From the IMG/VR virus record IMGVR_UViG_3300021959_004274, positions 28,188 through 92,187 of that record: a stretch of 64,000 bases of DNA, one strand, 5' to 3'. Positions 1,065 through 28,637 of this stretch are shown piece after piece. The notes under the pieces were generated by a model. The model did no database searches. It saw nothing but the letters and a program-made list of their open reading frames with translations, and was not told the origin of the DNA. Positions within the stretch are counted from its first letter, which is position 1; every line of letters starts with the position of its first letter. A program made the position numbers and the translations under genes. Origin of the DNA: a virus.

Positions 1065-2866
1065 TATTTTATATTCTTTGCAAAGTTTGATTTTGAAAAT
1101 CTTAAACGATCAACATACTTAAGGCCACCTGCTACATAACCTTCGTGTCCTGATTCTCCATCTATTGTAGCACTAATGCCGCCACCTTGTTGATCTAATG
1201 CTCTAACTATCTGTGTTTTAATAACAGCAATAGCATTGAATATGTTAAAAATTAATTCAACAACTTTTATATTCTCGCCTACATAGTTAGCAAGTCTTTC
1301 ACCTTTGCCTTGTGAAACTTTAGTTATTGCCCAATTAGCAAAGCTGTTGGCCATATTATTAAAGTTACCTTCTCTAACTTTAAAGTTAGCAAACTGTTTC
1401 ATTAATTGTGGCAAGTCTGATAGTTGTAATTCTCTTAATTTTCCTGGCATAAAGAAACGATCAATAGCTCTACTATTTGACAAAATCTTAGATTCAATTT
1501 GATCTAGTTTATCTGTTGGAACATCTACCTTAGGTGTTTCTTTCATTTTAGGGCCTACAAATAAGATAGGACCTGTAGGTAATTTTTCTATAGCATGGAA
1601 AGGTTGTCCTGCATCTTCTGGACCTGTTAAGAATGTGTGTATAGCAACACCTGCTTTACTTGCACCTATTTGTTTGCCTAGGTCAGTGTCTGCGTCAACT
1701 GAATATGTTACTGTGTTTGGCGTAAACACAAACTTACTACCTTGTTTTGCTGGTCTACCTGCATAGAGTAAATCGCCTTTAAAGAAACCTTGAAGGCCTT
1801 TAGGTGTTTGTGCTTCTAATGGTGCCCAAAGAGCTTTATACATATTAATTAATTCAGTACGATCGCCACCACGCATCAGCATAATTTTTTCTAGTTCTTC
1901 TGGACTTGTTGCTAGTCCAGAGTATGACTTAGCAGTAAAGCCTGACTTGTCTGTTAATATAAACTTACCGTTGCTGTCTCGGCCAAATATAATTGCTGGC
2001 TTGCCATCCCATTTAATTGTAATGTCTTGTGCTGAATTTGGCAACCATTTTAGATCTCTTATAGCACCTAGAGCACCGTGACTAGCATCATTGAATATCA
2101 TATCTTCTGGATGTTCAATTCTTGCCGCTTCTGTAATAACTTTCATTCCTAGGTTAACTAATCTATCTCTTGTATGTGCAATCCAATTAACTTCTGTTGA
2201 TTCAAACTGTAGTCCATCTTTTTCAAATGACTCTCTAGCATCTGCTACCAATGATTCGTATTCAGGGTCTTTACGTGCTTGTGCTAGTATACTTTCCACA
2301 CTGGCTAAATCTTTACGTGAGCCACCAATTAGCATTTTAGCAATTTCGTCTGGCTTGTTTGATATAACTTTGTTTGTTTCTCTTGACACTAGTCCATACT
2401 TGTATGACCACTTCATACCTCTAGCTTTAGCAATACTGGCTAATAAGATAGCACGGTGTACACCTTTGTATTCTGAATCTGGTGATGCGTTTAACGCAAA
2501 CTGTTGCCATTTAGGATCACCAAACATAAAGTCTACTTGTACATAGCCGTCTTGTGGATCACCGTTGATAGGACATTTATAGTGTACTGAGTCACCTGAC
2601 TTAGCAACGTCAGTGCTATTAACACCTTTTGATATTAGTTTATTATATAATTCGTCTTTGGTATGCTTACTAGCATCAACTGCTAGATCTAAATCACCTG
2701 ACGTAGGCTTCTTACCTGTTGAACCTAGCATGTTATCTAGTAAAGGTAATCCTGTTAGTGATTCAAGATATTTTACAGTTGGCTTAACATCAACAAGATT
2801 AATTCTTTGTGTTAAAGGATTGCCTTGTTGATCTTTAAATACGTTGCCGCCCTCAAATAGTTCCAT
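1064..2866 (-). CDS. Fusion of Pol-beta-type nucleotidyltransferase and ATP-dependent ligase-like (DUF6267-like) domain
   Basis: LGSTGKKPTSGDLDLAVD...VQVDF; HPED...KWDG, KGDLLY, EGYV, LKYV. Confidence 0.7.
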   Translation of the reverse strand: MELFEGGNVFKDQQGNPLTQRINLVDVKPTVKYLESLTGLPLLDNMLGSTGKKPTSGDLDLAVDASKHTKDELYNKLISKGVNSTDVAKSGDSVHYKCPINGDPQDGYVQVDFMFGDPKWQQFALNASPDSEYKGVHRAILLASIAKARGMKWSYKYGLVSRETNKVISNKPDEIAKMLIGGSRKDLASVESILAQARKDPEYESLVADARESFEKDGLQFESTEVNWIAHTRDRLVNLGMKVITEAARIEHPEDMIFNDASHGALGAIRDLKWLPNSAQDITIKWDGKPAIIFGRDSNGKFILTDKSGFTAKSYSGLATSPEELEKIMLMRGGDRTELINMYKALWAPLEAQTPKGLQGFFKGDLLYAGRPAKQGSKFVFTPNTVTYSVDADTDLGKQIGASKAGVAIHTFLTGPEDAGQPFHAIEKLPTGPILFVGPKMKETPKVDVPTDKLDQIESKILSNSRAIDRFFMPGKLRELQLSDLPQLMKQFANFKVREGNFNNMANSFANWAITKVSQGKGERLANYVGENIKVVELIFNIFNAIAVIKTQIVRALDQQGGGISATIDGESGHEGYVAGGLKYVDRLRFSKSNFAKNIK

Positions 2867-3423
2867 TATGCCTGGCCCTGAGCTTTTAGTAATTTTTCTA
2901 GATCTCTATAGGTTTGAGAATTTCTATCAACTTCTTGTCCGCACACTGTAATTTTACCAGCATTTGTAGATACTTTACAATCCTGCTGTGGTGCTAGAGT
3001 TGATCTCTGATTGTCTGTTGATGCTGTACCATCTAATTCGTCTTGTCCACTACGTGCTTGTGACACTGCTAATAGACCTGCCACTGCTTTTTGTACTAGA
3101 GCTTTGTCTCTTGGGTTTTGTACTAATGGATCAACTAAGTTTTGATACATGGCTTTAATATCTTGCGGAGCACTTTGTACAGTATATGGTTGTAGTACAG
3201 TAGCATCAAACCATTTTTGTAACGCACTCTTAACTTGTGCTGGGTTTAATTCTTCGTAGCCATTTTTGGCTTCTGATTGATTAAGATAATTGATCCAGGC
3301 TGGAACTGCTTTTTTAGCAAACGTAGCAATAAAGTTTGCATTTTGGTTTTTTCCTATAGCATTTTTTAATTTTCCAAAAATGCCTGGTGCTTCTTGTACT
3401 TGGATTATTTCATTAATCTTCAT
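2866..3423 (-). CDS. Hypothetical protein (MKINEII N-terminus)
   Basis: ORF, operon coupling. Confidence 0.65.
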   Translation of the reverse strand: MKINEIIQVQEAPGIFGKLKNAIGKNQNANFIATFAKKAVPAWINYLNQSEAKNGYEELNPAQVKSALQKWFDATVLQPYTVQSAPQDIKAMYQNLVDPLVQNPRDKALVQKAVAGLLAVSQARSGQDELDGTASTDNQRSTLAPQQDCKVSTNAGKITVCGQEVDRNSQTYRDLEKLLKAQGQA

Positions 3424-3658
3424 CTTTACGTCTCACTGACCGAGCAAATTTTTTAGGGTCTCTTGATTTGATGGCGTTAACAAACTTACGCTGTAAATCT
3501 TCTGCTTGTTCTCGAGTGTAAAGATTATCGATTTGTTCAAAAATATTGATAGCAGACTGGATTATGTTATTAGCACGACTCTCAACTAGGTGATTTTTGT
3601 CTTTGCTAATGTGCATTGAGCTCAATTCATCTAAAATACTTTTTGTTTTACGTTGCAT
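3413..3658 (-). CDS. Hypothetical protein
   Basis: ORF downstream of late-promoter box. Confidence 0.65.
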   Translation of the reverse strand: MQRKTKSILDELSSMHISKDKNHLVESRANNIIQSAINIFEQIDNLYTREQAEDLQRKFVNAIKSRDPKKFARSVRRKDED

Positions 3659-3678
3659 AAGTTAAGTTTCCGTTAGTG

Positions 3679-3690
3679 ATAGTATTTATC
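3679..3690 (-). promoter_or_regulatory. T4-like late promoter (GATAAATACTAT)
   Basis: Matches T4 late TATAAATA-type box; intergenic; recurs upstream of structural genes. Confidence 0.65.
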
Positions 3691-3692
3691 AC

Positions 3693-5096
3693 TTAACTTG
3701 ATTTTAGATTAGAAAGCATCTGCTTGAGCTTGTTGCCTTGTACATCTGCTGTAACTTTGGCTGACTCGCCCTCTGGTTCTGTTACTGTTTTTTCACCAAC
3801 TGTGGTAGTTGTTTTGATAGATTTCATTAGTTCACTAGGATTTGTTTGAGTGTATGCTGACTGTTGATCCTCTGCTAGATCTGTAATACGCAAACTTTCT
3901 ACATTAAACTCTAAGTCTACTTTACTGCCTACACCACTAGAACTTCTAGTTTTCATTAACTGTATTTGATAACGACCACGCTCACGCATAGCTCTCGATG
4001 TAAATATACCAAACACATTATCAGCAGTATTAATTTTACTCAAGCCACCTGCAATATGACTATGATCAAATTCTACTTCTTCAACTGCCGCTCTGTTTAA
4101 CTGCGATGCTGTAACAAAGATAATGTCTAGTTCTTTTGCTAGGTTACGTAACTCTTCACTTACATATTTGTCTTTAACAAACAAATCGTTTGGTGACACT
4201 TTAGCACTCACAGGCATAATCAAATCTAAATAGTCAACACAAAGGAAGTCTACTTTAGTTTTTGTTTGTATTTCTAATTCTTTTAAGTATGCTCTAATGT
4301 CATTAACGTTTGACTGTGCAGGCATATATTTGATTCTAAGTTTACCTGACTTCTTGCCTACAAGTTTAACTTTCATTTCAACATCTTCAAGTTTCTTAAA
4401 GATTTCTTTTGAACTAGTGTTAGTCATCATACTATCAAGTCGCATAGCACACAATCCTTCACTAAGTTCTAGTGTAATGTAAGCACCGTTAAGTCCTAGT
4501 TGGCTCCAGTTCACTGCCAAGTTCTGCATAAACAAACTTTTACCCGAACCAGATCCGCCTGCAAATATCTGTAGTTCACCTCTGTTGAATCCACCATACA
4601 ACGGTCTATCTAATGCTGACCAGCCCGACGACACTTGTCCGTTTTTACTTTTTAATAGTTCAAGTCTGCCTTTAGGATCCTCAAAGTAATCTGTACCCAT
4701 GTCTTTGGTTAACGATATTTGTACAGCATCTTTGATTAATTTTTCTACAGGATTGTAGTTGCCTTTTTCTAACATGTCTGCTGACTTAAGAATAGCACGT
4801 TCTAGTTCTTGACGTCTAGTAAACGACTCAAACTCTTCCATAAACCAACTGTAATGATCATCTGTTAAGTCAGGAAGATGTTGTAGTTTAGTTTTACTAA
4901 CTGCTTGTACTTGCTCAAACGTAGGAATAGCCTTGTGCTTGTCCACATGCTCTTTAATAAATTTGGCCGCTTCTTGTAGACTACGATCAAAGTTTTCTGG
5001 ATTGTAGATATTCTGCACACGGATATAGCTCTGAGCATCCTGTAGCATCATTTCTAAAAATAGTTTTTGTACTTCTAATGTATATTCTGTTGCCAT
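3693..5096 (-). CDS. gp41: DnaB-like replicative helicase
   Basis: Walker A GGSGSGKS, YITLEL, VDYLD, TASQLNR, MKTR. Confidence 0.93.
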   Translation of the reverse strand: MATEYTLEVQKLFLEMMLQDAQSYIRVQNIYNPENFDRSLQEAAKFIKEHVDKHKAIPTFEQVQAVSKTKLQHLPDLTDDHYSWFMEEFESFTRRQELERAILKSADMLEKGNYNPVEKLIKDAVQISLTKDMGTDYFEDPKGRLELLKSKNGQVSSGWSALDRPLYGGFNRGELQIFAGGSGSGKSLFMQNLAVNWSQLGLNGAYITLELSEGLCAMRLDSMMTNTSSKEIFKKLEDVEMKVKLVGKKSGKLRIKYMPAQSNVNDIRAYLKELEIQTKTKVDFLCVDYLDLIMPVSAKVSPNDLFVKDKYVSEELRNLAKELDIIFVTASQLNRAAVEEVEFDHSHIAGGLSKINTADNVFGIFTSRAMRERGRYQIQLMKTRSSSGVGSKVDLEFNVESLRITDLAEDQQSAYTQTNPSELMKSIKTTTTVGEKTVTEPEGESAKVTADVQGNKLKQMLSNLKSS

Positions 5097-5110
5097 GTGT
5101 ATATTATACG

Positions 5111-6082
5111 TTACCTAATAGTTTTAACAAGTCTGCGTTTTGCCAATTCTATCTTGATTTTACTAGTTTCACGACTGTTCATAATAGTTATCAAGGTTCC
5201 TAATCTACCATAATGTTTTACAGCATCGTTAACATCTTTAACATGCTCGGGCCAGTCTGGTATTGATACTGCCCAGCCTAGTTCTACTGCACGATCAATT
5301 AATTTTAGTCCAGCTTCGTCTTGATCAGGCACTACTGTTATCTGTTTGTGCTGTTGTTTTAATATTTGTGCTTGTTTATCACTGACTGTATTGTGTAAAA
5401 CTGCTACTGCGTTAATGCTTAATGCGTCAAACAATCCTTCTACTACCACTAACTGTGTCCAATGTTCTTGTTGTAGATCTAATCCAAACACATAGCCTGC
5501 TTGTTGTTCATTGATATACTTTGGTGTACGATCATCTAAGTAACGTGCTGACCAACCTACTACATCACCTTGATAAGTGTAAGGAACTACAATACGTTTT
5601 GCGTTACGTCCATCAACCTCAGGCGATATCATATAAGGATAGTCTTCCCAATCTATTCCTCTGTTGCGTAAGTATTCTATAAACTCTGCATCACCTGTTT
5701 CTAGTAAGCGTAGTTCTTCAGGTAAGTCCTTATGTTCAAACTCTACTTTAACTTCTACTTCACGCTGTTGTTCTACTAGTTGTGCTATATCCTTATGCTT
5801 AAGACTTTCTAAATTTAACCCTGCTATTGTATTTTGATCTAAGCCCATCCACGATAACAGTTTACGTGCTTTATAACTTAGTGTACGTCCTAGTTTAAAA
5901 CTTGCTTTGAAACCACAGTTAAAACAATGATAACTCCAATCTTCGCCGTTTTGTTTGATACCACCACGTTGTCTTTTATCCTGTCTTTCACCGTTGTGTT
6001 CACAGCAGACAGCATTAAACGATACCCAGCCACTGGAAGTACGTTTATGTTTTGCAGGAATAACAGTCGTAATATCTAACAT
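5111..6082 (-). CDS. gp61: DNA primase (Zn finger + TOPRIM)
   Basis: YHCFNCG, VVEGLFDA, PDQDEAG, KDVND; adjacent to helicase. Confidence 0.9.
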   Translation of the reverse strand: MLDITTVIPAKHKRTSSGWVSFNAVCCEHNGERQDKRQRGGIKQNGEDWSYHCFNCGFKASFKLGRTLSYKARKLLSWMGLDQNTIAGLNLESLKHKDIAQLVEQQREVEVKVEFEHKDLPEELRLLETGDAEFIEYLRNRGIDWEDYPYMISPEVDGRNAKRIVVPYTYQGDVVGWSARYLDDRTPKYINEQQAGYVFGLDLQQEHWTQLVVVEGLFDALSINAVAVLHNTVSDKQAQILKQQHKQITVVPDQDEAGLKLIDRAVELGWAVSIPDWPEHVKDVNDAVKHYGRLGTLITIMNSRETSKIKIELAKRRLVKTIR

Positions 6083-6798
6083 TAAGTTAGTATAACATCA
6101 TTTATTTGAGAATACAACATTTCTGATAAAATTTGGTGACCTTTTTCATTTGGATGATGTCCGGGTGCGTGTATTTGTTTTGTATCTGTACGTGCTTGTA
6201 GTATGTCTTGTAAGTTTTGGTCAGGCCATTCTAGTGTATCTGTATACTCTACCAGAGTTCCAGGATTATATAAGTTAAATTGCATCAACGGAATATTTTT
6301 AGTTTTACTGATACCATCAAAAAAATAAACTGCTTGTTGATAGTTTAGTTTTGATAGCTCATCGCAGTGGCTTAGTGTTAGGTATTGTTTACCAAATTGT
6401 TGCCATTCTTTAGGAATAACATCACTACCAAAGTTTACCCAAGTAGAATGTACATATTTGTTCCACGCTGGATCATTTGAATAACTTACATGTTCTGGAT
6501 TATACCAAGTTTGTCTATCTGGTGCAGTTAGTCCTACTAAACAAAGAGTATCTGACCAATCTGTATTTTCTAAAAACCAAAGGAAGTTCCACATTGTACT
6601 TTGTAGGCTGGCACCTGGGTGTCCATAATTTTCGTAAGGTACACCAAGTTTATCTGCTATGAGTCCTGAAAAGCAATGACTAAGCCTGTAGTCATCATTT
6701 TGTGTAAAGCAACACTCCCATTCAGGATGCGAGGGATCTACTAGTTCATCACCGTAAATCCAACTATCGCCAAATACGGCTAGTTTTTTAATGTTCAA
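6082..6798 (-). CDS. SGNH/GDSL hydrolase-like protein
   Basis: FGDSW block I, NYGHPGAS block II, C-terminal HHPNEKGH. Confidence 0.7.
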   Translation of the reverse strand: MNIKKLAVFGDSWIYGDELVDPSHPEWECCFTQNDDYRLSHCFSGLIADKLGVPYENYGHPGASLQSTMWNFLWFLENTDWSDTLCLVGLTAPDRQTWYNPEHVSYSNDPAWNKYVHSTWVNFGSDVIPKEWQQFGKQYLTLSHCDELSKLNYQQAVYFFDGISKTKNIPLMQFNLYNPGTLVEYTDTLEWPDQNLQDILQARTDTKQIHAPGHHPNEKGHQILSEMLYSQINDVILT

Positions 6799-7551
6799 CT
6801 ATCTAATTTTTACGTCTGTTATACTACCAGATGTTTTCTCAATGGTTAATCTTAAGTAAGGATGAAACCCATTGATATTTATATAGCCTGTAGTTGATGA
6901 GGCAGATAATGCTACAGCAGATCCTATGTCGTACCATGGACCACTAGTGTCAACAGTACCTTCTACTTTTATATTACCTGTAAATGTACTTGGAGTATAT
7001 TGTAATGTTTGTAAGCCTTGATCATTACTGGTCCAAGTTGATGAATTAAATGTTGATACGTTACCATGATTAGGAATAGTAATTGAACGACTTGCTGTGT
7101 GAGCAGGCATAACAGAATCTAAGATTTCAACAACGCCACGGGCACCGGCATTGTCATCTACAAATCCAGGATTGTATATTGCACTTGAACTTTGTTTACG
7201 TTCAAGCGTATAGTATCCTGTCTGTGCTGATACTATATCAAGTTCAGCTTCTGTTATTGTAACCTTAGCTCGACCTTTGACTAGGTCAATGGCTTCTAGG
7301 TCTTTACTTAGAATTAATTCATCACCGTTACTGTGAATTAATCTAAATGTTACTGTTGTATCTGTTAGCGATACTGGCTTCTGATCTTGATTAACGAATC
7401 TAAACGTTAATACATTGTCAGTGCCTTTATGAAGTTTTAAATCTTTTGCGTACACGGGTGCCCACCTCACTGAAGTTATGTTCGTGTTGGAATAATCATT
7501 TAATATTACCAACTGGTCCTGATTATATAAATAGACTTGAGTATTATACAT
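6799..7551 (-). CDS. Probable structural protein (BppU-like Ig fold N-terminus)
   Basis: Beta-rich, KGTDNVLTFRFVNQDQKPV; late box upstream. Confidence 0.5.
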   Translation of the reverse strand: MYNTQVYLYNQDQLVILNDYSNTNITSVRWAPVYAKDLKLHKGTDNVLTFRFVNQDQKPVSLTDTTVTFRLIHSNGDELILSKDLEAIDLVKGRAKVTITEAELDIVSAQTGYYTLERKQSSSAIYNPGFVDDNAGARGVVEILDSVMPAHTASRSITIPNHGNVSTFNSSTWTSNDQGLQTLQYTPSTFTGNIKVEGTVDTSGPWYDIGSAVALSASSTTGYININGFHPYLRLTIEKTSGSITDVKIR

Positions 7552-7568
7552 ATAACATATTTATCAAC

Positions 7569-7946
7569 ATGTCAAACGATTTTTTTAAACAACTGTCAGA
7601 GAAGTATCCATTTATCACTGTGGTGATGTATGGCAATGCAGAGTACGTAGGTATTGTGCAGAATCGTGATCACCTAGTGACCACAATGTATGACTTTGGG
7701 CGTATCATTGACATTGAAATGAAACAAAGATTCTTAGAATTAGCAGAAACTTGGTGGTGGGAATCAAACAGATCAATTCCAATTAATATTTTCTTACGTG
7801 AAGAATGGGCTCAGTTTAAACCATTCCTACAAACATTTATTAATAAAGATTTAGAAATATTATACGGTCCTGCCACTTCATTAACAGACCTTGCTAAAAA
7901 GCGTACTAAGAAAAAATCAATTACACTTGTACGCCGAGTAGACTAA
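7569..7946 (+). CDS. Hypothetical protein
   Basis: ORF (likely ATG 7569), WWWESNRSIPINIFL; divergent from 7551 gene. Confidence 0.7.
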   Translation: MSNDFFKQLSEKYPFITVVMYGNAEYVGIVQNRDHLVTTMYDFGRIIDIEMKQRFLELAETWWWESNRSIPINIFLREEWAQFKPFLQTFINKDLEILYGPATSLTDLAKKRTKKKSITLVRRVD

Positions 7947-8515
7947 ACCAATTCACTTAACAAATTCATATGTAAGGCAACCAGTACTGCGTAACTAACT
8001 GCGTGTGCTTTCTTAAAATAATAACTATCATCATCTGGCACCGTCCAAATATCTTCTGCAATAGTTTTCCAGTCTTTGCCTAGCAAGTGTCTTTTGCCTG
8101 GACGTATTAAAGCCAAAAACATAGCCATCCTGGGTATTGAATTTACTTCCATGTTTTTAATAAGATCATAATGATTACCAATGTGTATAATCTTTTCTAC
8201 AAATGATTGATCTTTAAGTAATTCCCAACGAGGTTCTTGATTAAGCATTTGATCATAGTGCTGTTGATCACGAATTAGTTTGTAAACATTAACATTCAAA
8301 AAGTCAATCTTAACATAGCCACGTTCTTCTGCTGACTCATAGTCAATACTAGCACAGTCATTGATTGGATCATAAGGTATTTCAGTTACATACACACCGG
8401 AGTTGTGTCTGCGTACTCCATCCTCACGATCTTGACGAGCAGAAGTATGCTCAATTAGTTTGAGTATATCCTCTCTATCTGCAAAATCAATATCAATGTC
8501 TGACTTAAACTTCAT
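7943..8515 (-). CDS. dnaE: Miniature DNA polymerase III alpha (DnaE/family C) catalytic-core protein
   Basis: SDIDIDF, HNSGVYV, VKIDFLN, ALIRPG, YFKKAHAVSYA in canonical order. Confidence 0.8.
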   Translation of the reverse strand: MKFKSDIDIDFADREDILKLIEHTSARQDREDGVRRHNSGVYVTEIPYDPINDCASIDYESAEERGYVKIDFLNVNVYKLIRDQQHYDQMLNQEPRWELLKDQSFVEKIIHIGNHYDLIKNMEVNSIPRMAMFLALIRPGKRHLLGKDWKTIAEDIWTVPDDDSYYFKKAHAVSYAVLVALHMNLLSELV

Positions 8516-9216
8516 TACCAACCTGCCTGCTTTAACATTTCTCTAAGATATTCTGTATCACCTGGATAATCTTTTAATTTTTTATGCCAACGTTCTGGAT
8601 CAATGAAATCATACACAATAGCTAGTTGTTCTTGTGTTAGGTTTTCTAAAAACTCGTGCCCCGAATCACAGTTAAAAATAGTCCAGCCTGTAATCCGTCC
8701 TGCGGTGATTAAATGACATATCTTGTTTGAGTTACCATACCGTAAAAAATGTTCTGTAGGATTGTTTGTGTCGTATGCCCAAGCAACACCTGTTTCTAAT
8801 GCACGTGTTAGTGCATCTGTTGCTGGTTCTTTGTATACCCATTCTTTTAAGAACTCATCATACAGTTTGTCAGTTCCCCAATAGTCTATACGTTTATTTC
8901 CCTTTAATAACCAATCAGCAAAACGTTCTGCGTTAACCACACGTGCATTAACACAATAGTTGCCAAACTTAATAAATGCTTTATAGTATGCAGATGTAGC
9001 AAAGTCGTCAAATGTTTTTTGTTTTGCTGAGCCTTGTGTTAGTTCATAAAAGCGTATAAAGTTTGTAAAGCCAATCCGACTTGCTGGTGTATCTTTATCT
9101 TGGAAACGTTTCTTTTGTTCGCAGACATGCACAGACAGTGTAGACTCTCTGGCAAATGATCTTTCACAATACTTACATTTATAAGTCAGCTTTAATTCGC
9201 TTGTCGTCCCAGCCAT
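8515..9216 (-). CDS. Zinc-finger (C2H2-like) replication-associated protein
   Basis: YKCKYCERSFARESTLSVHVC. Confidence 0.65.
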   Translation of the reverse strand: MAGTTSELKLTYKCKYCERSFARESTLSVHVCEQKKRFQDKDTPASRIGFTNFIRFYELTQGSAKQKTFDDFATSAYYKAFIKFGNYCVNARVVNAERFADWLLKGNKRIDYWGTDKLYDEFLKEWVYKEPATDALTRALETGVAWAYDTNNPTEHFLRYGNSNKICHLITAGRITGWTIFNCDSGHEFLENLTQEQLAIVYDFIDPERWHKKLKDYPGDTEYLREMLKQAGW

Positions 9217-9658
9217 GTTCTTTTGCTAGTTCCTTAATATCTTTTGTTGTTAATAATGACAGTTGTAAATCAAGTTCATCTGATTTCATATTTGGATACA
9301 GTTCACTTAAAAACTTTCTTGCTTTATTGTTTGACGTGCCTTCTTTCTTTTTGGCCGCTAACCAATAATGAAACTGATTACCCATCTTAGGACTTACCAC
9401 AGTACACATTAACCATTGTAGTTTTGGATGCTTGTTTAAGTCAAAGAAGTACTTGTTAACTGCCTCGTTAGTTGCTTGTAAATAATATGATTGTAAGTCT
9501 GCACGTCCGCCAACACTGGCTCCGTACCTTAACATTAGGTAAGTAGAAAATTGTTTACGCTCTTCGTCTGTAAACTTATCATAATAGTTTCGATCTTTAC
9601 GATCAAACGCCGCCATTTCATTACCAATGTATAATGGACTTGTTTTATCTGCTGGCAT
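9179..9658 (-). CDS. gp62: Clamp loader small subunit-like
   Basis: Size, FHYWLAAKKK...SLLTTKDIKEL pattern, replication context. Confidence 0.6.
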   Translation of the reverse strand: MPADKTSPLYIGNEMAAFDRKDRNYYDKFTDEERKQFSTYLMLRYGASVGGRADLQSYYLQATNEAVNKYFFDLNKHPKLQWLMCTVVSPKMGNQFHYWLAAKKKEGTSNNKARKFLSELYPNMKSDELDLQLSLLTTKDIKELAKEHGWDDKRIKADL

Positions 9659-10158
9659 TAGAATACCTTATCGTATTGTACTACTTCACAGTTACGTGAT
9701 ATATCCTTAACAAAATATATACATTCAGGTTCTTTTTCGTCCCCTAATGGTATAGTTAATAGTTGTCCGTTTTTAAGTTTAGGACAATACCAATTAACAT
9801 CATTATACACGTCAACAATTTCTATGTCAAGGAATGTGCTTCTGAATCCTGTTAATGGATTAAACTGAAATGCTTTAAATCCTCTGTCGTTAATTGATGT
9901 TAATGGTAATACTTCTAAATTACCACAGTCAGGCTCACCAATTAATATTTGCCAATCCACTGGCATTTTAATTTCGTAATTACCTATGCGTAATACTAGT
10001 GCAGGACTGTTAAATGATTCTAAAAAGATCAATGGTATCCAATGATGATCTGGGTTGGCTGGATCTGAATTGTCCAGTACACTAAAACGCATATCATCAA
10101 CTTCTTCGGGCAGTTGATCTAATTCATATCTTATGTTATCTAAAGTTAATATTCTCAT
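9658..10158 (-). CDS. Hypothetical beta-rich protein
   Basis: ORF with sigma70 promoter immediately upstream. Confidence 0.7.
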   Translation of the reverse strand: MRILTLDNIRYELDQLPEEVDDMRFSVLDNSDPANPDHHWIPLIFLESFNSPALVLRIGNYEIKMPVDWQILIGEPDCGNLEVLPLTSINDRGFKAFQFNPLTGFRSTFLDIEIVDVYNDVNWYCPKLKNGQLLTIPLGDEKEPECIYFVKDISRNCEVVQYDKVF

Positions 10159-10164
10159 ACTGTT

Positions 10165-10193
10165 ATTGTATAGTCCTGTTTAAGTTTTGTCAA
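10165..10193 (-). promoter_or_regulatory. sigma70-type promoter TTGACA-17-TACAAT
   Basis: Near-consensus boxes, 17-nt spacer, 6 nt before ATG. Confidence 0.75.
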
Positions 10194-11650
10194 TCTTGCC
10201 ACTCCGTTTTTTCTACCGTAAATGGATAGTTTGCTTCTCGATAAAATTGTTTACGTTTAGTTAAATGCCTTTTAGCAAATTTACAGGTTGATGTTATATC
10301 CCAAATTTGCACAAAATCTTTATCCTCAGCCTTTCTAATGCCTCGACCAATACTCTGAATAACCCGTACAAAACTTTTACCAGGCTCCACAAGCACCAAA
10401 TTGAAAATCCGAGGAATGTTAATACCAACAGCGGCAACACCATAAGTAGCAACAATAACTCTATCGTCCATTGTGGCCACTTCGTCATAGGATTCCTTTC
10501 TATCATTTGCTTTAGTTCCTCCTGAAACAAACACTGATCCAGGTATAAGTTCTGTTAAACGTTTACCTGGTGCTATACGATCTACAAGAATAAGTGTATT
10601 GCCTGACTCTTTAATTGAGTTAATTAGCCCAGCAATATACTTCATGCGGTCTTCTGTTTCTAGTAGATAACGTAATTCACTTTGATAATCTCTGTATTCA
10701 ACGTGATCAACTAACTGTACAATATTAACATGACAGTTTGCCAACACTCCTTCTTGCTGTAGTTCATTTGCACTCAGTCTACCAATAACCTCACCTAAAC
10801 TACATTTCAAACTCATAAACTCATATTCTTCTTTGGGTACTGTACCAGTTAATCCCCAACGTATAGGAACATGTGACATTGGTCCTGTTAATAATGTTCT
10901 AAGTGCATCCGCTTTGGCCATGTGTACTTCATCTACCATGACACAGACTACGTCATGTAAAAACTCATCTATTGTGATATCAATATCTTTAGCACGAGTT
11001 TTCTTCATCATAATGTTTAGACTCTGCCAAGTACAAATAGTATGTGTCTTGCCAAACTCTTTACGATCACCAAAGAACACACCTACGTCTAATCCCATGT
11101 TAATGTAATCTTCTTCAGTTTGCGTGACTAGACTTTTATTTGGAACAATAACTATTGTACGACCATGTGCTTCACATCTATGACTTAGCACAGCAGTGAT
11201 TAAAGTTTTACCTGCACCTGTGGCTACTTCTTGTATGCACTGTGGATTTTCTAAGAACTTATTAACTATCTCAACTTGATAGTCACGTAACATGATTGGT
11301 TGGCCTTTAGCAGGATGGTTAGGTGGCCAAACATAGTCTGCATAACTATCTTCTTTAACTTTTTCAAATCCATAGTTAGTTGAATAGTCACGGATGTCTT
11401 CTAGTTCAATATCATAATTAAACTCTTCTAATACAGGAATAATATCTGGCAATAGGTTAACATAAGTTGATCCACCTAGTTGAAAGAACCCTACCTTACC
11501 ATCCCATCGTCCTAGTCTCACTGCTGGCATATATCTAGCACCTGGGACTTCGTATTTGAATTTATTGGTCAGCGTTTTACGAGCGTCAAGTTCAAGACCT
11601 TCAATCTTTACATTAACTTCATCACGGACTATGATTTTACAATTTCGCAT
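10190..11650 (-). CDS. uvsW: SF2 DNA helicase UvsW
   Basis: LRDYQ, ATGAGKT, DEVH, GLTGT, QSIGRGIR. Confidence 0.92.
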   Translation of the reverse strand: MRNCKIIVRDEVNVKIEGLELDARKTLTNKFKYEVPGARYMPAVRLGRWDGKVGFFQLGGSTYVNLLPDIIPVLEEFNYDIELEDIRDYSTNYGFEKVKEDSYADYVWPPNHPAKGQPIMLRDYQVEIVNKFLENPQCIQEVATGAGKTLITAVLSHRCEAHGRTIVIVPNKSLVTQTEEDYINMGLDVGVFFGDRKEFGKTHTICTWQSLNIMMKKTRAKDIDITIDEFLHDVVCVMVDEVHMAKADALRTLLTGPMSHVPIRWGLTGTVPKEEYEFMSLKCSLGEVIGRLSANELQQEGVLANCHVNIVQLVDHVEYRDYQSELRYLLETEDRMKYIAGLINSIKESGNTLILVDRIAPGKRLTELIPGSVFVSGGTKANDRKESYDEVATMDDRVIVATYGVAAVGINIPRIFNLVLVEPGKSFVRVIQSIGRGIRKAEDKDFVQIWDITSTCKFAKRHLTKRKQFYREANYPFTVEKTEWQD

Positions 11651-11669
11651 ATTATATATTATATAGTAT

Positions 11670-11709
11670 AAAAGGTGAAAGGCACACTATTTTGGTAATG
11701 TGCCTTTCC
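11670..11709 (-). terminator. Rho-independent terminator
   Basis: GAAAGGCACA/TGTGCCTTTC stem followed by CCTTTT. Confidence 0.7.
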
Positions 11710-11710
11710 A

Positions 11711-11750
11711 TAGTCAGTTAGAAAGTGTTAGGAGCGAAACTAACTGACTA
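11711..11750 (-). ncRNA. Putative 3'-UTR hairpin with anti-RBS loop
   Basis: Perfect 11-bp stem; loop TTTCGCTCCTAA is complementary to the RBS at 13474-13485 and partly to 12569-12577. Confidence 0.5.
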
Positions 11751-11754
11751 AAAA

Positions 11755-12567
11755 CTATGCCGCCCTGCGTTTCATACAAGTTACTTCTGCCATCTCACGC
11801 CAGTTGTTTTGTGATACCTTGCGTAAGTCAGCAACTTTAAGGGCCATACGTAAACTTACTTCATTTAACTTCTCGCAGTTTTCTGTTAAGAAGTCTAAGA
11901 TTTCTTCTTGCTGTATACCTGATAAATCATAATCTTTAAACAGAGCACCAGTACCAGCAATCTGTTTAATACGTAATAGTTTATCACGCATAGTGTCTAA
12001 TGTCAAGTCTAAGTAGTGACATCTTGATTGAACTGCTTCTAAATGGTCTTGTAACTTTTTACTTTTAACATTGTTAAATTTAACGTTAGTGATAAAAATT
12101 GCTGAACCTTCAAAGTTAAATGTGTCAGGAACACCTTCGTTGCGTAGTTTGTATGAATCTGTGTTCCAGCATATCTTACGTGTCTTCTTACTATCAAGTG
12201 CGGCCTTAATAATGTTCAATGATAATTCATCTTGTAACACTGAGTCGCAGTCGTCAAACACTAAAACATTATCTTTTTCTTTGTAGTTGAATAGTTTACA
12301 GTATAGACCAATAGCACTCATAGCACCTTTAACAACATCATATGGCTTTGGCCTAGATCCTAGTTCGCTGTATATTCCAGCTTTTTCTAACTGCTGTTCA
12401 ACACCATATGATTTACCAACTCCTGGAGGGCCTACTACAATCATAGCTCTGATATCACCGTTGATGCAGGCTTTGGTCATTTCGTCTAGGATGTTGAATC
12501 TTTTGGAAATACGTTCGATGATTTGCTCATCTGTTTCTTTTGTAAATTTTATTGTCTTTGCTGACAT
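11755..12567 (-). CDS. AAA-family P-loop ATPase
   Basis: GPPGVGKS, VFDDCD, FITN, SR. Confidence 0.85.
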   Translation of the reverse strand: MSAKTIKFTKETDEQIIERISKRFNILDEMTKACINGDIRAMIVVGPPGVGKSYGVEQQLEKAGIYSELGSRPKPYDVVKGAMSAIGLYCKLFNYKEKDNVLVFDDCDSVLQDELSLNIIKAALDSKKTRKICWNTDSYKLRNEGVPDTFNFEGSAIFITNVKFNNVKSKKLQDHLEAVQSRCHYLDLTLDTMRDKLLRIKQIAGTGALFKDYDLSGIQQEEILDFLTENCEKLNEVSLRMALKVADLRKVSQNNWREMAEVTCMKRRAA

Positions 12568-12568
12568 A

Positions 12569-12594
12569 TTCGCTCCTTAATATGTTTACCTAAC
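12569..12594 (-). repeat. Conserved early leader, copy 2 (GTTAGGTAAACATATTAAGGAGCGAA)
   Basis: 25/26 identity to 13475-13500. Confidence 0.85.
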
Positions 12595-12600
12595 TTTAAT

Positions 12601-12629
12601 AGTATAAGATCTTAGTAATTAATTGTCAA
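12601..12629 (-). promoter_or_regulatory. sigma70 promoter TTGACA-17-TATACT
   Basis: Near-consensus boxes and spacing. Confidence 0.8.
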
Positions 12630-12798
12630 CCGTTTTCATTACTTTTTCTTTAATTAGATCTAATATATCTTCTAGATCGTTAGCATCAATGCTGATACCC
12701 ATTTGAGTTAACTGTTGATCTAACTTGGTAATATTATCTATGGACACTTCTTCAACTTGTGCCCATAGATTTTGATTTATATATTCTTCGTAACTCAT
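12619..12798 (-). CDS. Small acidic hypothetical protein (MSYEEYINQ...)
   Basis: Likely ATG at 12798 directly after upstream stop. Confidence 0.6.
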   Translation of the reverse strand: MSYEEYINQNLWAQVEEVSIDNITKLDQQLTQMGISIDANDLEDILDLIKEKVMKTVDN

Positions 12799-12799
12799 A

Positions 12800-13150
12800 C
12801 TACCACCATGAATTGTAATAAACTTTTCTGCCACCAGCAAGTTCACCCCTGGCTTCTGCAATAAAAGCCAAGTCTTGATCTTTGTAGTATTCGTCTGCTG
12901 GACCGCCAAAGAAGAAGCCTTGTGTTTCTGGAAGATCACGCATTAGAACAGAGTTCTCTAACAACTCAAGATCGTCAAGTGTTAGTTCAACTTCAACACA
13001 ATTAAAACTATCTTCTGTGTTGCCAGTTTTAGCTCTCCATAACTTTTCCATAAAGCCATGTAAGTTAGGATGCTTTCTCCAGTAACTAATTTCTCTAGAT
13101 TTTTTACTAGTTGTTTTTGCTCGACTGTATGCTGTCATATCTAAACCCAT
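12800..13150 (-). CDS. Conserved phage hypothetical protein (MGLDM...YWRKHPNLHG...FFFG...YYNSWW)
   Basis: Recognisable phage family motifs; AAGGAG RBS. Confidence 0.8.
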   Translation of the reverse strand: MGLDMTAYSRAKTTSKKSREISYWRKHPNLHGFMEKLWRAKTGNTEDSFNCVEVELTLDDLELLENSVLMRDLPETQGFFFGGPADEYYKDQDLAFIAEARGELAGGRKVYYNSWW

Positions 13151-13160
13151 AACTGTCTCC

Positions 13161-13472
13161 TTATCTATATAAGTGGCCTGAACCACAATTATTTTCTAAG
13201 TAATCAATGTCTTTATACAAGTTAAATCTAACCCCTTTTGCTGGTGCATTCCAACCTGCTGGTTTGTAAACGTCGCCTGTTGTTTTTTCAATAAAAGCAA
13301 CAACGCTACGTGATTCAAGTTCGCCGTTATCTTCAACATAACCGTCAACTATTTTAATATACTTGCGACCTTCTTGTGCGGCAAATCCTCTTTTTACGTG
13401 AGTGAGTCCTTGACTATCAAAGTCACGTTGTAAACCTGCTATGTATCTGTCAATTAATTTGTTTAAGTCCAC
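13161..13472 (-). CDS. Conserved phage early protein (GRKYIKIV...GDVYKPAGWNAPAKGVR)
   Basis: Family motif; GTG start with AGGAG RBS. Confidence 0.8.
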   Translation of the reverse strand: MDLNKLIDRYIAGLQRDFDSQGLTHVKRGFAAQEGRKYIKIVDGYVEDNGELESRSVVAFIEKTTGDVYKPAGWNAPAKGVRFNLYKDIDYLENNCGSGHLYR

Positions 13473-13474
13473 GT

Positions 13475-13500
13475 TTCGCTCCTAAATATGTTTACCTAAC
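13475..13500 (-). repeat. Conserved early leader, copy 1 (GTTAGGTAAACATATTTAGGAGCGAA)
   Basis: Near-identical to 12569-12594; both begin 6 nt after a -10 box. Confidence 0.85.
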
Positions 13501-13506
13501 AATAAT

Positions 13507-13535
13507 ACTATAGCAAATTTGGATTTTTTGGTCAA
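13507..13535 (-). promoter_or_regulatory. sigma70 promoter TTGACC-17-TATAGT
   Basis: Near-consensus boxes and spacing. Confidence 0.7.
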
Positions 13536-26831: not shown

Positions 26832-28637
26832 TTACCAATTGATTAATGTTTTTAATCTCTCAACGTAGTTTTCTTCTACTTTATATATTTTACCATCTAC
26901 TTCAAACTCTTTTTTGCCATCACGTTTAGCGTTAGCAAGTGCTAATGAAAATTCATTACCTTCGTCTACATCATCTTCGTTAACTGCGTCAGGTTGTACA
27001 TTTGAAATAGCAGTTCTTAACAGTTTACCAGTTTCAGTTCTAAACTCAACTGCTTCGTCTGTTACTGTTTCAACTGTACCTTTAGTACCTTTGACTGTAA
27101 CAATTTGATCACCTACTGATGGTGTGTATTCTTCTGTTACTGTATCTTCAGCCGCTAATACACCTGCCAGGTCTTTCATTTTACCAATATATGCTGGTTT
27201 GTCTGGATCCTGGTTTAAGCCTGGAGTTTTAACTTCTTCCCAATCTGACTTTTTACTTTGATACTTTTTCTCAAACTCTTCGTCTGATAGTTCTTCTAAG
27301 TCTAGGTGTAGCTCTTTCATTTTACCTTCTTCAAGTTCTACATCTTCCATTGGCACATCAGCGTCTCTTGCGTCCCACTCTGCGTCTGCATCTTCTTGAG
27401 CCGCTTCTAATGCTTCGTTGTGTAACTCGCCGCCTGGCTGTACCATTTGTGTACACCATTCGTCTGTTAGTTTATTGTTGCCGTCACCGTTACACCAAGC
27501 ATTTAATGATTTAGGATCTACAAATGCTTTATTTTGTTCTTTATCAACAACTACTGTGTAGCGTACACCACCGTAGCCTGGTTCACCATCATCACCAGCA
27601 AATTCCCATTCCATTTCGCTTTCCCATGAATCTGGATCAAAACCTTCGTTTACATCGTATGACATTTCTTCTGCCCACGATTCAAATTCTTTAATTTCTT
27701 TCATTGACTTACCCTCTAGTTCAAGTTTAGCCAACACTGGTATTGCTGACTCTACTCTTTGATCTAATAATCTTTCAGTAAATAATTCACGCACACGTTC
27801 CACTACTTCTTGTTGTGGTTGTTCACTGCTGTTGTATTCTTCAAATGCTTTATGATATCCACGTTTACCAATCATTGATTTAACTTTACGTTTAATATCC
27901 CCAAAGTGTCTAAGGCCACGTTCTGCAAGTTCTGTTGATTCAGAGTCTTGCCAGTCCTTACCACGTGCATATCTAGTAAAAGCACCTAGTGTTTCAATAT
28001 CACTAACCAGTTCACAAATGTACTGACCAAATGAGTCATATGGATTACCACCTTCACTTACATGTCTTGCCATAGCACGACCACCATATAGTTTATTAAA
28101 TGGTAGTTTGAAACGTTCGCCATCTGATGTTTCAACGTAAAGTGCGGCTACATTTCTGTATCGCTGATCACCTTGTTCTTCATCAATTGGTCTTGAATGT
28201 ACTATTTTAAGTTTTGCTTCTTTAGTAGGTCTTGTGTATGATGTCTTTTTAAATCCGTAGTATTTTGATTCAGTGACTTGTGCCATTGTTTGCATAGCAA
28301 ATTTTAGTTTATTCATATGTTTTAGACTAAACTCTAACATGTTACGTTTAGCAAAGTGGCGTAATTGATATAAAAAGTCATACCAATCTTTTTTATCTTC
28401 TGAATCCATACCTTTACCAAGCACATCACCATAGTAAACTTCTAACTCGCCTTTAGGGTTAATAGTAACTACTACTGTGCCGTAGTTTTGTTCTCCAACT
28501 TTATAGCTAAATGAGAATAAGTCTGCCTGTGTAGCATCAGATGTTTCTTTGCCTTTTGCGTCACGAGTGGTTAACTCAAAACTCTTAGCAACAAGTAGGT
28601 CAAACAGTTTCTGTCTTGTGTCTTCTAATGATATCAT
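26832..28637 (-). CDS. Large late protein, probable head-associated multi-domain protein
   Basis: Late box; acidic C-terminal half with many (V/L)xE sites. Confidence 0.65.
   Translation of the reverse strand: MISLEDTRQKLFDLLVAKSFELTTRDAKGKETSDATQADLFSFSYKVGEQNYGTVVVTINPKGELEVYYGDVLGKGMDSEDKKDWYDFLYQLRHFAKRNMLEFSLKHMNKLKFAMQTMAQVTESKYYGFKKTSYTRPTKEAKLKIVHSRPIDEEQGDQRYRNVAALYVETSDGERFKLPFNKLYGGRAMARHVSEGGNPYDSFGQYICELVSDIETLGAFTRYARGKDWQDSESTELAERGLRHFGDIKRKVKSMIGKRGYHKAFEEYNSSEQPQQEVVERVRELFTERLLDQRVESAIPVLAKLELEGKSMKEIKEFESWAEEMSYDVNEGFDPDSWESEMEWEFAGDDGEPGYGGVRYTVVVDKEQNKAFVDPKSLNAWCNGDGNNKLTDEWCTQMVQPGGELHNEALEAAQEDADAEWDARDADVPMEDVELEEGKMKELHLDLEELSDEEFEKKYQSKKSDWEEVKTPGLNQDPDKPAYIGKMKDLAGVLAAEDTVTEEYTPSVGDQIVTVKGTKGTVETVTDEAVEFRTETGKLLRTAISNVQPDAVNEDDVDEGNEFSLALANAKRDGKKEFEVDGKIYKVEENYVERLKTLINW

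Follow-up and report, generated by a model that had tools for sequence, protein, structure and literature searches.

Can the 3' end of a phage messenger RNA (mRNA) close the ribosome-binding site (RBS) at the 5' end of the same molecule? The question is raised by a hairpin that follows the gene for an NrdC.10-like P-loop ATPase in a 64,000-nt stretch of viral DNA (positions 28,188 to 92,187 of IMGVR_UViG_3300021959_004274; hereafter the window). The source is a 92-kb IMG/VR viral record with an estimated completeness of 25%, and the phage is uncultured and T4-like.

The hairpin loop is complementary to the RBS of the ATPase gene. This complementarity is real, conserved and covarying, and the loop displays it single-stranded. 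Pairing between the RBS and the 3' untranslated region (3'-UTR) is strongly supported by the comparison of related sequences. We infer that the pairing would take place in vivo, mainly within one molecule, and that its effect would be repressive; it may shut off translation and could serve as a timer. Taken as a whole, the reading of the hairpin as a conserved cis-regulatory element in the ATPase 3'-UTR, which pairs with the RBS and limits translation, stands in our judgement evenly balanced between right and wrong.

Hairpin loop and ribosome-binding sites in the window

The genes surrounding the hairpin are all encoded on the minus strand. The hairpin begins 4 nt past the ATPase stop codon and lies ahead of a separate terminator (11708-11677). 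The first-pass annotation of this DNA had described a perfect 11-bp stem with an 18-nt loop between the two, and this structure was found at 11711-11750. The stem arm TAGTCAGTTAG (11750-11740) pairs perfectly with CTAACTGACTA (11721-11711), and the loop reads TTTCGCTCCTAACACTTT (also written UUUCGCUCCUAACACUUU). Its 5' part, UUUCGCUCCUAA (11739-11728), is the anti-RBS. The minimum-energy fold retained the 11-bp stem, with a P(unpaired) of 0.98 for the anti-RBS part. The hairpin has no U-tract and therefore does not qualify as an intrinsic terminator.

Two complementarities had been claimed for the loop, and both are present. The 13-mer TTAGGAGCGAAAC (= UUAGGAGCGAAAC) occurs exactly twice in the window, on the minus strand at 13473-13485 in the RBS region of gene 13161-13472 and on the plus strand at 11728-11740, where it corresponds to the loop and is antisense in the mRNA. 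Over 9 nt, TTCGCTCCT in the loop is complementary to the ATPase RBS, AGGAGCGAA. Only three copies of GGAGCGAA were found in the whole 92-kb record, namely the two RBSs and the loop. The two RBSs stand in 26-nt leaders that proved to be as similar and as identically placed as described: both begin 6 nt past the -10 hexamer of a sigma-70-type promoter.

The predicted duplexes of the loop with the leaders had energies of -21.8 kcal/mol (RBS of gene 13161-13472) and -16.1 kcal/mol. They ranked first and third among the 123 starts of open reading frames (ORFs) in the record (mean: -7.0 kcal/mol, sd: 3.3 kcal/mol). In an unbiased scan of the same 123 ORFs for complementarity between an RBS and its own 3'-UTR, the longest complement belonged to the ATPase. 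The 9-nt match in the window alone reached a shuffling p of about 0.02. What decides against a chance match is the comparison with relatives.

The Rfam 15 covariance models gave no relevant match in the window at E-values up to 10, and no match in nine related loci at the gathering score. No antisense ORF or RNA feature was found at the ATPase locus.

Conservation and covariation in related phages

In the first scan of viral contigs, which was protein-based, 52 loci with an ATPase identity of 54-93% were obtained. Two more viral scans and one metagenome scan led to 167 non-redundant loci having both gene ends. A degenerate RBS pattern, scanned against viral contigs, was too unspecific (none of its 118 matches was an ATPase locus).

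A complement of at least 7 nt between the ATPase RBS and its own 3'-UTR, including the Shine-Dalgarno (SD) sequence, was present in 93 of the 167 loci, and one of at least 8 nt in 63. With dinucleotide-shuffled 3'-UTRs, the corresponding numbers were 5.2 loci (a maximum of 8) and 1.6 loci. Leaders matched to the 3'-UTRs of other classes gave 6.8% (at least 7 nt) and 1.8% (at least 8 nt). RBS and 3' motif changed together in more than 12 sequence classes (Table 1), and the classes follow clades on the ATPase tree. As RBS and loop change together across at least 12 variants, the pairing is probably a conserved control of the ATPase mRNA and not a coincidence.

Table 1. Variants of the ATPase RBS and the 3'-UTR motifs that covary with them
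RBS	3'-UTR motif
GGAGCGAA	UUCGCUCC
AGGAGCUA	UAGCUCCU
AGGAGCUAGA	UCUAGCUCCU
UAGGAGUUCA	UGAACUCCUA
CAGGAGUUCA	UGAACUCCUG
UAGGGAGUA	UACUCCCUA
CGAGGGCA	UGCCCUCG
UGAGGGCA	UGCCCUCA
GAGGGCU	AGCCCUC
AGGGCACAC	GUGUGCCCU
GAAGGGCA	UGCCCUUC
GGAGAGAGA	UCUCUCUCC
GGAGGAGCAA	UUGCUCCUCC
UAACGGAGUG	CACUCCGUUA
AACGGAGUA	UACUCCGUU
GGAGCUA	UAGCUCC
AGGAGUUCA	UGAACUCCU
GAGGGCA	UGCCCUC

The first-pass annotation had made its proposal depend on conservation of the loop and on covariation with the RBS in relatives, and both came out in its favour. They support its core idea of a putatively functional anti-RBS for the leader RBS, acting in cis or as a 3'-UTR-derived RNA. The 13-nt match that it described is lineage-specific: relatives have 9-10 nt or none, and what is conserved is a core of 7-9 nt complementary to the ATPase's own RBS. 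The loop was also considered as the RBS of an antisense gene on the plus strand. This was rejected, since a suitable start codon and ORF were present in just 3 of 56 loci.

The 3' motif was predicted to lie in hairpin loops or in linkers between hairpins. Its mean P(unpaired) was 0.76, compared with 0.42 for the remainder of the same 3'-UTRs (Wilcoxon p 5e-16). Half of the loci had at least two copies of the motif, and in several clades the second copy was the loop of the intrinsic terminator itself. In 25 of the 93 loci, the first copy began 0-5 nt past the stop codon; a copy in this position would be covered by the terminating ribosome. In loci with an additional small gene behind the ATPase, the motif was found past that gene, meaning that it belongs to the 3' end of the transcription unit.

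Close relatives (88-93% ATPase identity) have kept the hairpin, with an invariant CGCTCCTAAC / CGCUCCUAAC in the loop and a variable 3' part. Relatives with 63-68% identity, whose ATPase has an N-terminal extension, carry a hairpin in the same position with very different stems, a loop of 7-9 nt with the core yCGCUCC, and the extended RBS AAGGAGCGAAUU. In an alignment of seven hairpins from one subclade of these relatives, four stem pairs had changed on both sides, and 90% of cells were paired, compared with 25-49% when the partner strand was slid. The sister group of the window clade (82-88% identity) has the RBS GGGGGUAA and neither hairpin nor complement. RBS variant and hairpin were thus lost together.

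Two further observations were made in the relatives. In one lineage (leaders and 3'-UTRs of L227 and L229; L378), a 10-nt complement CUGACACAGA/UCUGUGUCAG is situated immediately upstream of the SD without overlapping it, and the terminator stem itself is GGAGCGC/GCGCUCC. Some relatives have tRNA genes inserted beside the ATPase gene (L019, 977-1090; L339, 306-469); in L019, a tRNA-like sequence occupies the place of the hairpin and terminator of other loci.

Organisation of the locus

The coordinates of the features are given in Table 2. No terminator-like sites were found between 13500 and 11708. Transcription from the upstream promoter (13535-13507) can therefore continue to the terminator at 11708-11677, and both RBSs that bear the motif can sit on RNAs that end with the loop.

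Table 2. Features of the ATPase locus in window coordinates
Feature	Position	Strand	Remark
UvsW-like helicase gene, next after the ATPase	10190-11650	-	
Intrinsic terminator of the ATPase unit	11677-11708	-	13-bp stem, then T-rich tail
Anti-RBS hairpin	11711-11750	-	Perfect 11-bp stem and 18-nt loop, by folding
ATPase stop codon TAG	11755-11757	-	
NrdC.10-like P-loop ATPase gene, 270 aa	11755-12567	-	Bearer of the putatively regulated RBS; phrog_1250, E 1.7e-86
ATPase RBS AGGAGCGAA	12569-12577	-	9 nt complementary to loop UUCGCUCCU (= TTCGCTCCT)
Leader copy 1, 26 nt	12569-12594	-	ATPase mRNA
Sigma-70-type promoter of the ATPase gene	12601-12629	-	TTGACA-17-TATACT
Two small genes, 116 aa and 59 aa	12619-13150	-	Between both leaders; ordinary RBSs; transcription unit common with the ATPase
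DUF7717 gene, 103 aa	13161-13472	-	Leads the longer co-terminal transcript (first cistron)
RBS region UUAGGAGCGAAAC of gene 13161-13472	13473-13485	-	13 nt complementary to the loop
Leader copy 2, 26 nt	13475-13500	-	25/26 identical to copy 1
Sigma-70-type promoter	13507-13535	-	TTGACC-17-TATAGT; drives a four-gene unit sharing the ATPase terminator

The ATPase is about 38% identical to the T4 nrdC.10 protein, and its match to AAA_16 was weak. Its best cultured protein relative is from the Pseudomonas jumbo phage PA5oct (47% identity). Nucleotide searches against a collection of cultured phages gave no match for the locus. In the marine clades inspected, the ATPase gene adjoins the uvsW-like helicase gene.

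The coding region of the ATPase itself contains a promoter-like site (TTGACA-17-TAAACT, with TG) at 11978-12006 (minus strand), ~220 nt before the stop codon, which could yield a short 3' RNA bearing the hairpin. The UvsW-like helicase gene has no SD, and a TATAAT -10 box is located 7-8 nt ahead of its ATG (11648-11680, minus strand). The same spacing recurs in the relatives L003, L011, L013 and L015, which suggests a leaderless helicase mRNA. In the L031 clade, the helicase ATG directly follows the T-run of the terminator.

Proposed mechanism and alternative explanations

In the proposed mechanism, the anti-RBS at the 3' end would pair with the extended SD region at the 5' end of the same RNA once the transcript is completed, and the pairing would occlude the RBS. 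In the window phage, the loop would also be able to pair with the duplicated leader at the first cistron of the longer co-terminal transcript. As the occlusion would follow completion, we propose that each mRNA is translated mainly during its synthesis and is afterwards closed and possibly destabilised.

Several points weigh against self-pairing as the general explanation. A complement of at least 7 nt within 200 nt is missing from 74 of the 167 loci; the causes include inserted genes, a clade that lost the element and possibly mis-called starts. Every complement contains the GGAG/CUCC core, so that information resides in only 3-6 flanking positions. Pairing of a loop with a distant RBS is a pseudoknot, which nearest-neighbour folding cannot score, so that only duplex energies could be given. 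Furthermore, the loop GAUUCGCUCCC is invariant in a GC-richer clade, while the ATPase RBS drifts at positions 8-9. A shared target, a target in trans or a protein partner would account for this better than strict self-pairing does. When flanking mismatches were compared (G-U in RNA sense against A-C), the outcome was dominated by a few large clades.

The main alternative is a small RNA that originates in the 3'-UTR and acts in trans, which we consider unlikely as the principal explanation, although it is compatible with action in cis. Here, the hairpin and terminator (~75 nt, 11677-11750) would outlive mRNA decay and accumulate, and the loop would kiss the RBSs of early mRNAs with the extended motif, which would be shut off as infection proceeds. 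The breadth of the targets bears on this point. In the window genome, the motif is confined to the ATPase RBS and the duplicated leader, and the "class of early genes" proposed in the first-pass annotation was not borne out there. A 201-kb relative has GGAGCGAA once, at the ATPase. In the AGGAGUUC class, the 8-mer was present only as RBS and 3' complement in a 51-kb contig, and a 52-kb contig had one additional copy. GGAGCUA was tried as a regulon-wide RBS in its clade and rejected, its frequency being no higher than that of the control.

The idea of an early-gene class held for a single clade, the GC-richer one from freshwater; in several others, the ATPase alone is marked. In the GC-richer clade, the early genes almost all have one layout, a sigma-70 promoter followed by a CA-rich leader and the RBS GGAGCGAA(C), with 9-20 copies of GGAGCGAA per record, compared with 0-1 for the reversed control. 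Most copies sit together upstream of the ATPase on a single strand. The loop motif of a complete 383-kb genome in this clade was found as a loop just twice, both times immediately past the ATPase; a third copy is merely an RBS on the opposite strand.

A trans-acting RNA would explain why so many early genes share the motif in this clade, why its two loops stay constant as the ATPase RBS drifts, and how RBSs could be reached that are distant from the loops or on the other strand, where pairing in cis is impossible. The second loop moreover lies within the intrinsic terminator, a part of the mRNA that typically persists, and the best match in the window, of 13 nt, involves another gene than the ATPase. 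However, most clades have the extended RBS at essentially no gene but the ATPase, and the covariation tracks the ATPase's own RBS locus by locus. Even in the GC-richer clade, most motif genes are located upstream, on the same strand, and no clear terminator intervenes, so that co-terminal transcripts would carry the loops in cis.

One contig of the dataset (L398, G008) has a very regular early-gene array: within 10 kb (1700-11500), one strand carries ~23 sigma-70 promoters that are close to perfect (11-12 of 12 positions match), each preceding a small ORF with the RBS GGAGCGAA. As ~23 strong promoters face the ATPase and no clear terminator intervenes, the anti-RBS hairpins could be the common end of all the early transcripts.

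A protective closure of the mRNA was also considered, and we hold it to be doubtful. In this case, 5'-3' pairing would not repress translation but stabilise the mRNA, or keep a nuclease away from the RBS GGAG. The covariation supports such a pairing equally, and the 5'/3'-UTR interaction of hbs in B. subtilis is a precedent (Braun et al. 2017, PMC5737220). Nuclease attack may be a real pressure in relatives of the window phage, as the orthologous RBS of T4 fits the consensus of the endonuclease RegB. On the other hand, a pairing that covers the SD should block 30S binding, and distal anti-SD sequences reduced both mRNA level and translation in experiments (PMC12697547). Moreover, no RegB homologue (PF10715) was found in four related records (G000-G003, one of them 90% complete), though the control genomes were silent too and the window record is 25% complete.

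The comparison with RegB was extended to the RBS sequences. According to Durand et al. (2006, PMC1702504), the RegB/S1 consensus is GGAGRAYARAA, GGAGAAUAAAA, C is disfavoured at position 5, and 24 sites are efficiently cleaved. By this description, the window RBS, GGAGCGAAU/A, does not qualify as a target, having C at position 5, whereas the RBS of T4 nrdC.10 (L394, AF158101.6, 464-496) reads GGAGAAUAAAAUG / GGAGAATAAAATG and is an exact match. No 3' complement to the RBS was found for T4 nrdC.10. As its RBS has the RegB consensus and no 3' complement, T4 may use the nuclease to shut off the orthologous RBS.

Among cultured phages, no RBS/3'-UTR complement was found in T4, 44RR2.8t, Vibrio D533 and PVA23, and no GGAGCG/CGCUCC pair in Acj9 and PA5oct. 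PA5oct (L068, 1129-1158 and 2314-2366) has an 8-nt complement, AGTAGCAT/ATGCTACT, between the region just after the SD and a hairpin that follows the stop codon, where it falls in the 3' stem arm and not in a loop. It may be that a culturable phage has a related arrangement here, or the match may be due to chance.

A broader version of the cis and trans readings is speculative, and we would not expect it to hold. In T4-like phages without RegB, an RNA would replace the nuclease: the early cluster would have one or two anti-RBS loops at its shared 3' end, and these would close, in cis and in trans, every early mRNA with a private extended RBS (GGAGCGAA in the freshwater clade) as complete transcripts and stable 3' fragments accumulate. 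Terminating ribosomes would hide a copy placed 0-5 nt past the stop codon, and the switch would thereby be coupled to ongoing translation.

We hold it very improbable that the loop serves as a protein operator and matches the RBS incidentally, the RNA-binding protein (translational repressor or processing enzyme) being encoded by phage or host. The 11-nt loop GAUUCGCUCCC of the GC-richer clade and its closing CCG/CGG are indeed conserved beyond the needs of an 8-bp pairing, but such an operator does not predict the joint change of loop and RBS flanks across the classes, nor the joint loss of RBS variant and hairpin. Least credible of all is a DNA-level inverted repeat around the ATPase (a site of recombination or a mobile cassette) or a chance match of a CUCC loop to a GGAG RBS: inverted repeats covary too, and the shuffling result for the 9-nt match alone is not extreme, but one copy always overlaps the SD, 5-8 nt ahead of the start codon, its counterpart occupies the 3'-UTR of the transcribed strand throughout and is displayed single-stranded, the ATPase has kept its place beside the uvsW-like gene in the marine clades inspected, antisense ORFs are absent, and 93 loci were observed where about 5 were expected.

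Comparison with known systems

The comparative signature of the element is unusually clean: one gene family and one position in hundreds of contigs from marine and freshwater viromes. The many independent compensatory changes are natural "mutants" for the study of distal anti-SD elements. The conservation suggests that the NrdC.10-like ATPase needs tightly limited expression, which T4 may reach via the RegB consensus at the orthologous RBS. If the regulon version holds true, the loops would form an RNA-only temporal switch for phage early genes.

Among the closest known systems is the icaR mRNA of Staphylococcus aureus, in which an anti-SD, UCCCCUG, in the 3'-UTR is reported to pair with the SD in the 5'-UTR (Ruiz de los Mozos et al. 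2013, cited in PMC12697547). As in icaR, a pyrimidine-rich anti-SD complementary to the mRNA's own SD lies between stop codon and terminator (in the window and in 93 of 167 loci), the complementarity exceeds chance, and the proposed outcome is blocked initiation and decay. Unlike icaR, the element belongs to a T4-like lytic phage, its motif is in a hairpin loop beside or inside the terminator, often in two copies, and the predicted pairing reaches SD-flanking bases that covary across many lineages.

Enterobacterial small RNAs derived from 3'-UTRs (CpxQ, SroC and similar) and antisense kissing loops likewise consist of terminator-proximal RNA with a seed for an RBS. In CpxQ and SroC, the seed is in a single-stranded 5' region, whereas here it is in a hairpin loop and its main target would be the parent mRNA.

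In B. subtilis, initiation is inhibited and decay promoted when anti-SD-like sequences several hundred nucleotides downstream base-pair with the RBS (Gill et al. 2025, PMC12697547). The predicted contact with the RBS over hundreds of nucleotides is shared with these 8-mers, which repress expression. They were synthetic substitutions of a kind that natural genes avoid (PMC12697547), whereas the phage motif is positively conserved at a fixed place. Long-distance 5'-3' pairing also keeps full-length type I toxin mRNAs translationally inert (fbi/tac of hok, and aapA1 of H. pylori; PMC6733600). In these cases, the 5'-3' helix is extended and the product is a toxin; here, a short contact between loop and RBS would act on the mRNA of a 270-aa P-loop ATPase, and neither an antisense antitoxin RNA nor an activating 3' processing was seen. 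The early shut-off by RegB/S1 in T4 (PMC1702504) has in common with the element an extended RBS motif of early genes as a post-transcriptional handle. The effector in T4 is a protein endonuclease, whereas the partner here would be an RNA sequence.

Natural long-range interactions that occlude an RBS in bacterial mRNAs are few, with three reports named by Gill et al. 2025 (PMC12697547), and none was found described for a phage in the literature. The element appears to be a new, phage-borne and phylogenetically well-supported form of long-range pairing between 3'-UTR and RBS, while the kind of mechanism would not be new.

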